Shown one piece after another: positions 10,847-11,803 of a stretch of 12,738 nt of DNA. Made by a program: the position numbers and the translations under genes. Source of the DNA: Candidatus Aenigmatarchaeota archaeon (GTDB lineage: Archaea; Aenigmatarchaeota; Aenigmatarchaeia; QMZP01); contig JAWCLA010000007.1 in NCBI GenBank assembly GCA_039091855.1, forward strand, positions 15,415 through 28,152, in the 5' to 3' direction. The notes beneath the pieces were generated by a model. That model worked only from the letters and a program-made list of their open reading frames with translations, was not told the origin of the DNA and did not search any database. The first letter of the stretch is position 1. Each line of letters opens with the position of its first letter.

Positions 10847-11227
10847 ATGGAATATATTAAGGACCCGGAGCTAGATGAAAGGGTTTTTGACATAGTCCAT
10901 AAGCTTGGGATGGAGCACATAAAATTACAGAGGGTTGTTTGCATAAGAAGCTATGGTTCAAAGAGCAGGAGAACGCTCGCCAGATGCCATGTTCTGCCAA
11001 AGATAATACAGGAAGCGCTGGGCATTAAGGCATATTATATAATAGAGGTAATATCAGAGAATTTCGACCGCCTCTCGTACGAGGAGCAGACAAAAGTCCT
11101 GATACACGAGCTTATGCACATACCAAAAACCTTCGGGGGTGGGTTCAAGTTCCACAACTATGTGAACAGGAAGGAAGTGGAAAAAATGTACAGGCTTTAC
11201 AAAAAATCAAAAGACTCTGCAATATAA
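10847..11227 (+). CDS. Putative zinc metallopeptidase-like protein, 126 aa
   Basis: YIIEVISENFDRLSYEEQTKVLIHELMHIP contains an HExxH motif typical of a small archaeal/phage predicted-metallopeptidase family. Confidence 0.85.
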   Translation: MEYIKDPELDERVFDIVHKLGMEHIKLQRVVCIRSYGSKSRRTLARCHVLPKIIQEALGIKAYYIIEVISENFDRLSYEEQTKVLIHELMHIPKTFGGGFKFHNYVNRKEVEKMYRLYKKSKDSAI

Positions 11228-11467: not shown

Positions 11468-11529
11468 CATTCCAATTAGTTCTAAGTTCATAGCCCGGTG
11501 GTGTAGTGGTCAAGCATGTCGGGCTTTGG

Positions 11530-11676
11530 ACACTTGGAAGGAAGTCGGAACAGAAACTTGTGTCTTTCCGCCTTCAAACTGAAGTTCCAAAGCTTTGAGA
11601 ACCCTGCAACTGAAGTTTTCCGTGAACGCTTTTGCGGAAGTGGAAACTCCTGTAAAAGGGTTCTGTGAAAGAGGAA
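11530..11676 (+). other. tRNA intron 1 (canonical position 37/38, 147 nt)
   Basis: Relaxed BHB: C32-U35 pairs with GAGG 11671-11674, with bulges GG|A and AA|A. Confidence 0.88.
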
Positions 11677-11697
11677 ACCCGACGACAGCGGTTCGAA

Positions 11698-11782
11698 ACA
11701 AAGGCTTTTTTGAAAAAAGCCTTTGGATGCCAAAAACCTTTACCTTAACTGTGATATTGGTTCATCTAACTGGAATCGATAA
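11698..11782 (+). other. tRNA intron 2 (T-loop, probably 59/60, 85 nt)
   Basis: Separates GGTTCGAA from TCCGCT. UCG(55-57) pairs with CGA 11777-11779, with bulges AA|A and AA|T. The junction is ambiguous by 1-2 nt because of the repeated AA. Confidence 0.82.
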
Positions 11783-11803
11783 TCCGCTCCGGGCTATTAG
11801 TTA

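Follow-up and report, generated by a model that had tools for sequence, protein, structure and literature searches.

Archaeal EndA is known to cleave any RNA presenting a BHB, and the question raised by the present locus is whether such a substrate can lie wholly within another intron. In a 12,738-nt stretch of a Candidatus Aenigmatarchaeota genome (the window; coordinates without a contig label are window positions, on the forward strand unless marked otherwise), a 67-nt stem-loop at 11598-11664 lies inside the first intron of a tRNA-Gln(UUG) gene and displays a BHB-like fold. A preliminary description of the sequence had taken this fold for a 46-nt intron that entered the loop of a pre-existing hairpin.

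The tRNA-Gln(UUG) gene and the guide-like plan of intron 1

The tRNA-Gln(UUG) gene occupies 11492-11796 and contains two introns. It was parsed by hand, and ARAGORN called tRNA-Gln(ttg) after in-silico removal of 11530-11676 and 11698-11782, leaving exons at 11492-11529, 11677-11697 and 11783-11796, with the discriminator A as the final base and CCA not encoded. The unspliced gene was missed by both ARAGORN and Rfam in scans of the window. Intron 1 (11530-11676, 147 nt) sits at the canonical 37/38 position; as A11530 and A11677 are identical, its boundary is uncertain by 1 nt. Its own BHB is relaxed, with a central helix pairing 11524-11527 and 11671-11674 (C-G, U-G, U-A, U-G), bulges at 11528-11530 and 11675-11677, and a 3-bp inner helix (CAC 11531-11533 with GTG 11665-11667) located beyond a 3-nt gap. 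Under the same parse across 15 orthologues, four central pairs are present in 14, and the 3' bulge reads A-N-A in all. Intron 2 (11698-11782, 85 nt), at T-loop position 59/60, also has a relaxed BHB, which reads from the sequence as three of four central pairs with no adjoining inner helix. It is homologous to the T-loop introns of tRNA-Gln(CUG) on contig C37 and tRNA-Lys(UUU) at C36:2469-2730 of the same genome, the tRNA-Gln(CUG) paralogue combining its homologous intron 2 with an intron 1 of 13 nt.

Two open reading frames were noted around the gene. An 81-aa frame on the minus strand (11488-11733) overlaps the tRNA gene and its introns and is most likely spurious, and a 126-aa frame on the plus strand (10847-11227), approximately 260 nt upstream of the tRNA gene, matches the Pfam family 'putative phage metallopeptidase'.

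The architecture of intron 1 is conserved in all 15 tRNA-Gln(UUG) orthologues, which were collected from related genomes and parsed with one script. Intron length ranges from 35 to 147 nt, with a constant plan consisting of a short spacer, an 8-nt antisense stretch, one nucleotide, NTGA, a hairpin, a 3-nt bulge followed by GA, and the 3' half of the BHB. In the window, the antisense, guide-like stretch TCCAAAGC (11586-11593) pairs with tRNA positions 31-37 and the first intron base, A11590 pairing with the wobble base U34 (11526). Between seven and eight of its eight positions are paired in every orthologue, with compensatory antisense changes where tRNA position 32 or 33 differs (L044, L047, L049 and L059) and one mismatch in L015. 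Position 33 is C, not the near-universal U, in the tRNA-Gln(UUG) of L015, L047, L049 and L059, accompanied by the matching antisense G in three of these four.

The D'-like box TTGA (11595-11598) follows at a distance that places the U34-paired base at the fifth nucleotide upstream of the box. NTGA keeps identical spacing from the antisense stretch in 15/15 orthologues; in each, the antisense ends 1 nt before this D-type box and the fifth upstream nucleotide pairs with the predicted target U34. The C'-like box TGTGAAAG (11664-11671) includes GA at 11667-11668, and the GTG at 11665-11667 doubles as the 3' strand of the inner helix of intron 1. Directly 3' of the hairpin stem, a 3-nt bulge whose last base is T and then GA occur in all 15, and at the sequence level the xUGA ... 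xUGA arrangement around a stem that characterises a K-turn or K-loop is likewise present in all. The D'-C' hairpin itself ranges from 6 to 65 nt across the 15 orthologues, with a stem of 2-7 bp, so insertion at this place is tolerated.

Taken together, the sequence comparison suggests that intron 1 serves as a conserved guide of the half box C/D type, aimed at the ribose of U34 by the N+5 rule. No second pair of boxes (C and D) was seen in intron 1, and the 35-45-nt orthologue introns are too short for one; the putative guide would therefore be a half-mer functioning in the manner of a C/D guide, and would fall outside the standard class. The guide fold and the BHB fold share nucleotides and must consequently form in turn. 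Fibrillarin and L7Ae genes are encoded in the same genome. Nop5 was not found in this genome (84% complete) and was found in 27 of the 31 genomes searched, this one included, that is, in 27 of 30 relatives. A compact, intron-encoded guide for the wobble U of tRNA-Gln, conserved across an archaeal order, would extend the tRNA-Trp paradigm.

The 5' spacer of intron 1 shows a lineage-specific expansion of about 52 nt (11534-11585), as indicated by orthologue comparison. The distance from the anticodon loop to the antisense stretch is only a few nucleotides in 13 of the 15 orthologues and is longer in the window's own gene, L018 and L049; a BLAST search with the locus found no match to the expansion elsewhere in 61 genomes. 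A second, far weaker BHB-like motif with 3-bp flanking helices lies in this spacer at 11540-11572, delimiting a 26-nt piece (11546-11571). It stands at chance level, as 39 motifs of this stringency occur in the 336-nt region.

In intron mode, ARAGORN identified four tRNA genes in the whole 689-kb genome (84% complete), and no Rfam tRNA match reached cut-off anywhere in it. Nearly all tRNA genes must therefore be hidden by non-canonical or multiple introns, and standard tRNA finders miss almost all of them. In the tRNA-Lys(UUU) gene at C36:2469-2730 (minus strand), three introns (47, 51 and 89 nt) leave positions 31-37 as a micro-exon of 7 nt; its joined exons were accepted by ARAGORN. The middle intron of this gene contains a GATGACAG box, which is well conserved, and a stretch antisense to the anticodon loop. 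The tRNA-Lys introns were considered as full C/D guides, an assignment not upheld because the D'-like position is not conserved there.

The BHB-like fold at 11598-11664

Sequence reading and a BHB scanner confirm all base pairs of the preliminary description, and the polarity of the fold is that of a BHB. The outer helix joins AGAACCC (11598-11604) and GGGTTCT (11658-11664) by seven Watson-Crick pairs, and the central helix joins TGCA (11605-11608) and TGTA (11651-11654) by three Watson-Crick pairs and one G-U. The bulges, ACT (11609-11611) and AAA (11655-11657), each lie 3' of their own central-helix strand. The inner helix (11612-11620 with 11642-11650) is paired at 8/9 positions, with an A-C mismatch at the second position and one U-G. 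This candidate nested BHB (11605-11657) shows the hBHBh' geometry, having two 3-nt bulges, a 4-bp helix and flanking helices of at least 2 bp each, and the scanner recovers it only with one inner-helix mismatch allowed.

EndA reportedly cuts after the second nucleotide of each bulge, which predicts a 46-nt excised piece (11611-11656) whose removal leaves a 9-bp hairpin with a CAA loop, just as had been proposed. No C/D boxes were seen at the junction of the predicted 46-nt circle. Applied elsewhere, the BHB geometry and the cut rule yield 7-nt T-loops for two hand-checked strict T-loop introns (L036 and L032), and the tRNA-Gln and tRNA-Lys spliced in silico in this way are valid by ARAGORN. 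The nested motif is also, as previously stated, stricter than those of the tRNA itself, since intron 1 has two central G-U pairs and three extra nucleotides before a 3-bp inner helix, and intron 2 has only 3/4 central pairs. Two EndA-type genes are present in the same genome, at C19:129-1355 and C12:5584-5856; one corresponds to a 408-aa ORF with two endonuclease-domain matches, and the other lies within a 204-aa open frame.

The geometry alone is not rare, as 144 comparable motifs were counted in the whole genome (1.38 Mb of strand, approximately one per 9.6 kb) with an outer helix of at least 5 bp, at most one G-U in the central helix and an inner helix of 7/8. The nested motif is fairly judged against a null of imperfect hairpin stems instead of random sequence. 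RNAfold gave a minimum free energy of -23.9 kcal/mol, compared with -20.6 kcal/mol for the BHB fold (3.3 higher), and a probability of about 0.05 for the central pairs. On the same measure, seven genuine strict BHB introns from relatives span 0.01-0.99; the value of 0.05 thus leaves room for function, because true BHB introns reach as low as 0.01. Among the DNA contigs from four runs, the sequence of the locus was identical in X2, and no deleted form (deletion joint) was present in any run. No RNA run was found to contain the locus.

A multi-copy hairpin element and its arrival at the tRNA-Gln locus

The stem-loop fills the variable D'-C' hairpin of intron 1, and most of it belongs to an element found repeatedly in related genomes. 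The forward copy in the window extends over 11599-11663, with a terminal helix formed by GAACCC (11599-11604) and GGGTTC (11658-11663) and a core delimited by nhmmer at 11616-11661. In a BLAST search with the locus against 61 genomes, of which 48 gave matches, the segment 11615-11665 had many matches per genome across the order. The nhmmer profile identified 49 copies in the same genome and the fetched loci, six of them in the genome itself. Rfam returned nothing at gathering thresholds, giving only three chance-level matches with E values from 3.7 to 7.5. A K-turn in the element core was considered and dropped, as the GAA/GAA loop, inspected by eye, is symmetric and lacks a 3-nt bulge.

The element occupies diverse hosts. 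It forms the body of strict BHB introns at T-loop position 59/60 (L036, L032, L060, L014 and L019) and, in L005 and L034, at a site of tRNA-Ser that lies between D-arm and anticodon stem, occurs in both orientations across tRNA and rRNA introns, and is also found adjoining tRNA ends. Introns of tRNA-Lys exist with and without it. In one tRNA-Lys intron (L172, genome G020), the reversed core is enclosed by the same GAACCC...GGGTTC stem. In a 23S rRNA copy (L011), the forward element and the rRNA are on opposite strands, and a strict-looking BHB is also present on the forward strand of that copy, antisense to the rRNA. The same 23S site holds the element in two genera (L011 and L035, in genomes G017 and G027). 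On the 23S sense strand, a BHB whose outer helix has just 2 bp can be recognised by eye and was not picked up by the scanner, the predicted splice junction having been judged against what we take to be the 23S sequence. The own-genome 23S rRNA at the L011 insertion site is absent from the assembly.

Four intergenic copies (L028, L012, L020 and C2:17100-17300 of the same genome) lie between direct repeats of 10-23 nt. At C2:17100-17300, the gene for ribosomal protein S10 is closely preceded by a partial element, whose flanking 18-20-nt direct repeat duplicates the ribosome-binding site and start codon. At L021 (G047:C4:10250-10750), a short form of the element makes up a tandem array with a 40-nt period beside a tRNA gene on the opposite strand. 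The copy at 11599-11663 has no flanking direct repeats, the 10-nt repeat AACTGAAGTT sitting on one side only. This repeat occurs twice in intron 1, at 11577-11586 and 11608-11617, with the second copy within the unusual 5' arm of the element, and may mark a local duplication or conversion.

The element is thus multi-copy, and host sites without it exist. At the tRNA-Gln site itself, three same-genus orthologues (L041, L042 and L058, from genomes G004, G003 and G001) lack the element, which makes the insertion young and without evolutionary depth at this locus. Their D'-C' hairpins have unrelated stems, those of G004 and G003 being short with a GCAA loop and that of G001 longer. Collectively, these distributions point to mobility of the element at the DNA level.

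These observations separate what holds from what does not in the proposed insertion history. DNA of an intron family has indeed entered another intron, and same-genus sites without it exist. Conversely, the 46 nt were not the inserted unit, because the conserved element, approximately 11599-11663, takes in the outer helix and the AAA bulge. This assignment of both parts to the element follows from the stem shared with the reversed core of L172 and from the recurrence of the 3' arm through GGGTTCT, which has the same form in copies of other genes and genera. The perfect 9-bp hairpin had been regarded as a pre-existing host structure and was expected, uninterrupted, in relatives; the three empty same-genus sites were indeed located, but all carry unrelated hairpins and none shows the uninterrupted 9-bp stem, so that the restored hairpin does not represent an ancestral form.

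Bare GAACCC...GGGTTC hairpins were additionally searched in 91 genomes, giving about 88 sites compared with about 42 for a control pattern (roughly twofold). Twenty of the approximately 88 sites were fetched, 19 of which lie outside a D'-C' site and appear by eye to be mostly protein-coding, with one (L144) inside a tRNA gene. The only bare hairpin at a D'-C' site among the 20 belongs to a tRNA-Lys intron (L140, genome G055), and its loop has 4 nt, whereas BHB excision would leave 7 nt.

Readings of the motif and known systems

Related forward copies show how far the BHB register is kept. At least 11 long forward copies occupy D'-C' hairpins of tRNA introns (two in tRNA-Gln, six in tRNA-Lys, one in tRNA-Glu and two unassigned). 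A search with the pattern AAAAGGGTYN{1,3}TGA gave 353 matches, of which 150 were considered and 20 picked by the look of the C' box; 13 of the 20 were irrelevant, the pattern being too loose. All 11 copies have 7 nt per strand between the outer and inner helices. Central-helix pairs in the BHB register number 4, 4, 4, 4, 4, 3, 3, 2, 2, 2 and 0, amounting to 32/44 paired cells and a complete helix (4/4) in five copies. When 5' arms were dealt among the copies (20,000 partner shuffles), at least 32 pairs arose in 1.7% and five full helices in 0.4%, and letter shuffles reached 32 pairs or five full helices in 0.005%, with helix boundaries set by eye and the 11 copies being kin. The register thus recurs in these copies beyond what shuffling yields. 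In three of the full helices both sides have changed, giving G-U/C-G (this copy), U-G/G-C (L040) and G-C/G-C (L102). The five complete helices come from tRNA-Gln, tRNA-Lys, tRNA-Glu and the unassigned L102, representing three families of the order (f1, f3 and f6), and the consensus arms of the element alone give 3/4 central pairs in this register, which, with the kinship of the copies and the choice of boundaries, lowers the weight of the shuffle figures.

On balance, it is probable that the locus holds a copy of the element in which the BHB is incidental or at most occasionally cut. The 67-nt stem-loop would be one copy, in forward orientation, of a small mobile hairpin element that encodes no protein and belongs to the archaeal order; it would have replaced the apical hairpin between the D'-like and C'-like boxes of intron 1, and the C'-like box is predicted to refold for splicing, forming the inner helix of that intron's BHB. 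The resemblance to a BHB would arise because the arms each hold seven poorly matched nucleotides, a 4-bp block pairing in a register shifted by three, and is probably for the most part incidental. EndA may cleave the nested fold part of the time; such a cut is unneeded for tRNA maturation, since splicing takes out intron 1 in its entirety. Genuine EndA cleavage at the 11598-11664 motif is possible, and we consider it doubtful.

The alternative that survives best is a true nested intron, with the forward strand acting as a self-contained BHB from which EndA would remove a 41-46-nt core as a circle, either from the pre-tRNA or from the excised intron, leaving a compact D'-C' hairpin. We entertain this only tentatively, and are similarly hesitant about its corollary that the element is tolerated or spreading since it is spliced from whatever RNA reads its forward strand. 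The strict geometry with long flanking helices, the two EndA-type genes, the role of the same element as the body of strict BHB introns elsewhere and a product hairpin of the size seen in orthologues are all consistent with it. The central helix, complete in 5/11 forward copies with compensatory changes and a shuffle frequency of 0.4-1.7%, argues in the same direction, whereas the other six copies retain 3/4 pairs in two, 2/4 in three and none in one. The BHB fold is moreover disfavoured by RNAfold, and the solo hairpin of L140 has a loop of 4 nt, not 7 nt. Because the outer helix moves together with the element, part of the insertion would remain after the cut, and the variation of the hairpin from 6 to 65 nt removes any selective need for cutting. 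In its general form, with a complete BHB on the forward strand that would let EndA release a circular core of 41-46 nt from any transcript, including from within another intron, the proposal strikes us as conceivable and rather unlikely. If true, a protein-less mobile element would survive as an intron wherever it landed, giving the first BHB 'twintron', and the nested cut would trim a parasitised guide RNA to working size. If cut, the motif would be the first archaeal endonuclease-spliced intron inside another, and a concrete case of protein-less intron spread through a DNA-level hairpin element whose ends make the splice site.

Considerably less probable is a role for the conserved 7x7 internal loop, with a 3' side ending in AAA beside GGG, as a protein- or RNA-binding motif unrelated to EndA, for example as a dock for assembly of the half-mer guide RNP. 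Spacing and AAA are kept in 11/11 forward copies at D'-C' hairpins, and the core loop is symmetric and G/A-rich (GAA opposite GAA) on the forward strand and not on the reverse. Conversely, inspection by eye matched no known motif, a K-turn would need a 3-nt bulge that is missing from the core, Rfam gives nothing, and sites of this kind also hold the element in reverse (L172). The exact model of the preliminary description, a 46-nt BHB intron that entered the loop of an older host hairpin AGAACCCTG-CAA-CAGGGTTCT, is very improbable: excision restores a perfect 9-bp hairpin, the retained GCAA (11606-11609) resembles the GCAA loops of same-genus hairpins and a bare GAACCC-loop-GGGTTC hairpin stands at the equivalent site of one G055 tRNA-Lys intron, but in unrelated hosts the element consensus includes the same 3' arm as far as GGGTTCT, GAACCC/GGGTTC also flanks the reverse-oriented core of L172, and same-genus tRNA-Gln hairpin stems are unrelated.

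Returning to the preferred reading of a mobile element copy inside a guide-like intron, three known systems invite comparison. A literature search for nested or twintron BHB introns found no report of an archaeal BHB intron within another, and tRNAGln does not occur in the text of PMC7994747. The archaeal pre-tRNA-Trp intron, as described in parts of PMC4090602 and PMC7994747, encodes a box C/D guide for Cm34 and Um39. As far as those parts extend, intron 1 resembles it in being a 37/38 intron antisense to its own anticodon loop beside a D'-type box, in having the wobble ribose as the predicted N+5 target, and in possessing guide and BHB folds that are mutually exclusive. Against the same description, it differs in that the host is tRNA-Gln(UUG) and the predicted target U34, with a single D'/C' pair and a single guide (half-mer), and in that the shortest tRNA-Gln(UUG) orthologue intron is only 35 nt.

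Other multi-intron archaeal pre-tRNAs have been described as containing 'nested' BHBs, the formation of which requires prior removal of other introns (passages of PMC3728597, citing Sugahara 2008 and Tocchini-Valentini 2009). In the account given in those passages, as here, a precursor has more than one EndA substrate (here a candidate), and sequential cuts are possible. The introns there all interrupt the tRNA body, whereas the inner motif here is wholly intronic, with an outer BHB independent of the inner one.

Transposed BHB tRNA introns of Thermoproteales have near-identical bodies in different tRNA genes and positions (Fujishima et al. 2010, as related in a portion of PMC4090602). On that summary, the two cases are alike in that mobility is implied without an encoded protein. 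The present element differs from the introns so summarised in its range of sites, which extends to rRNA, to the interior of another intron and to intergenic DNA flanked by 10-23-nt direct repeats, and in taking both orientations.
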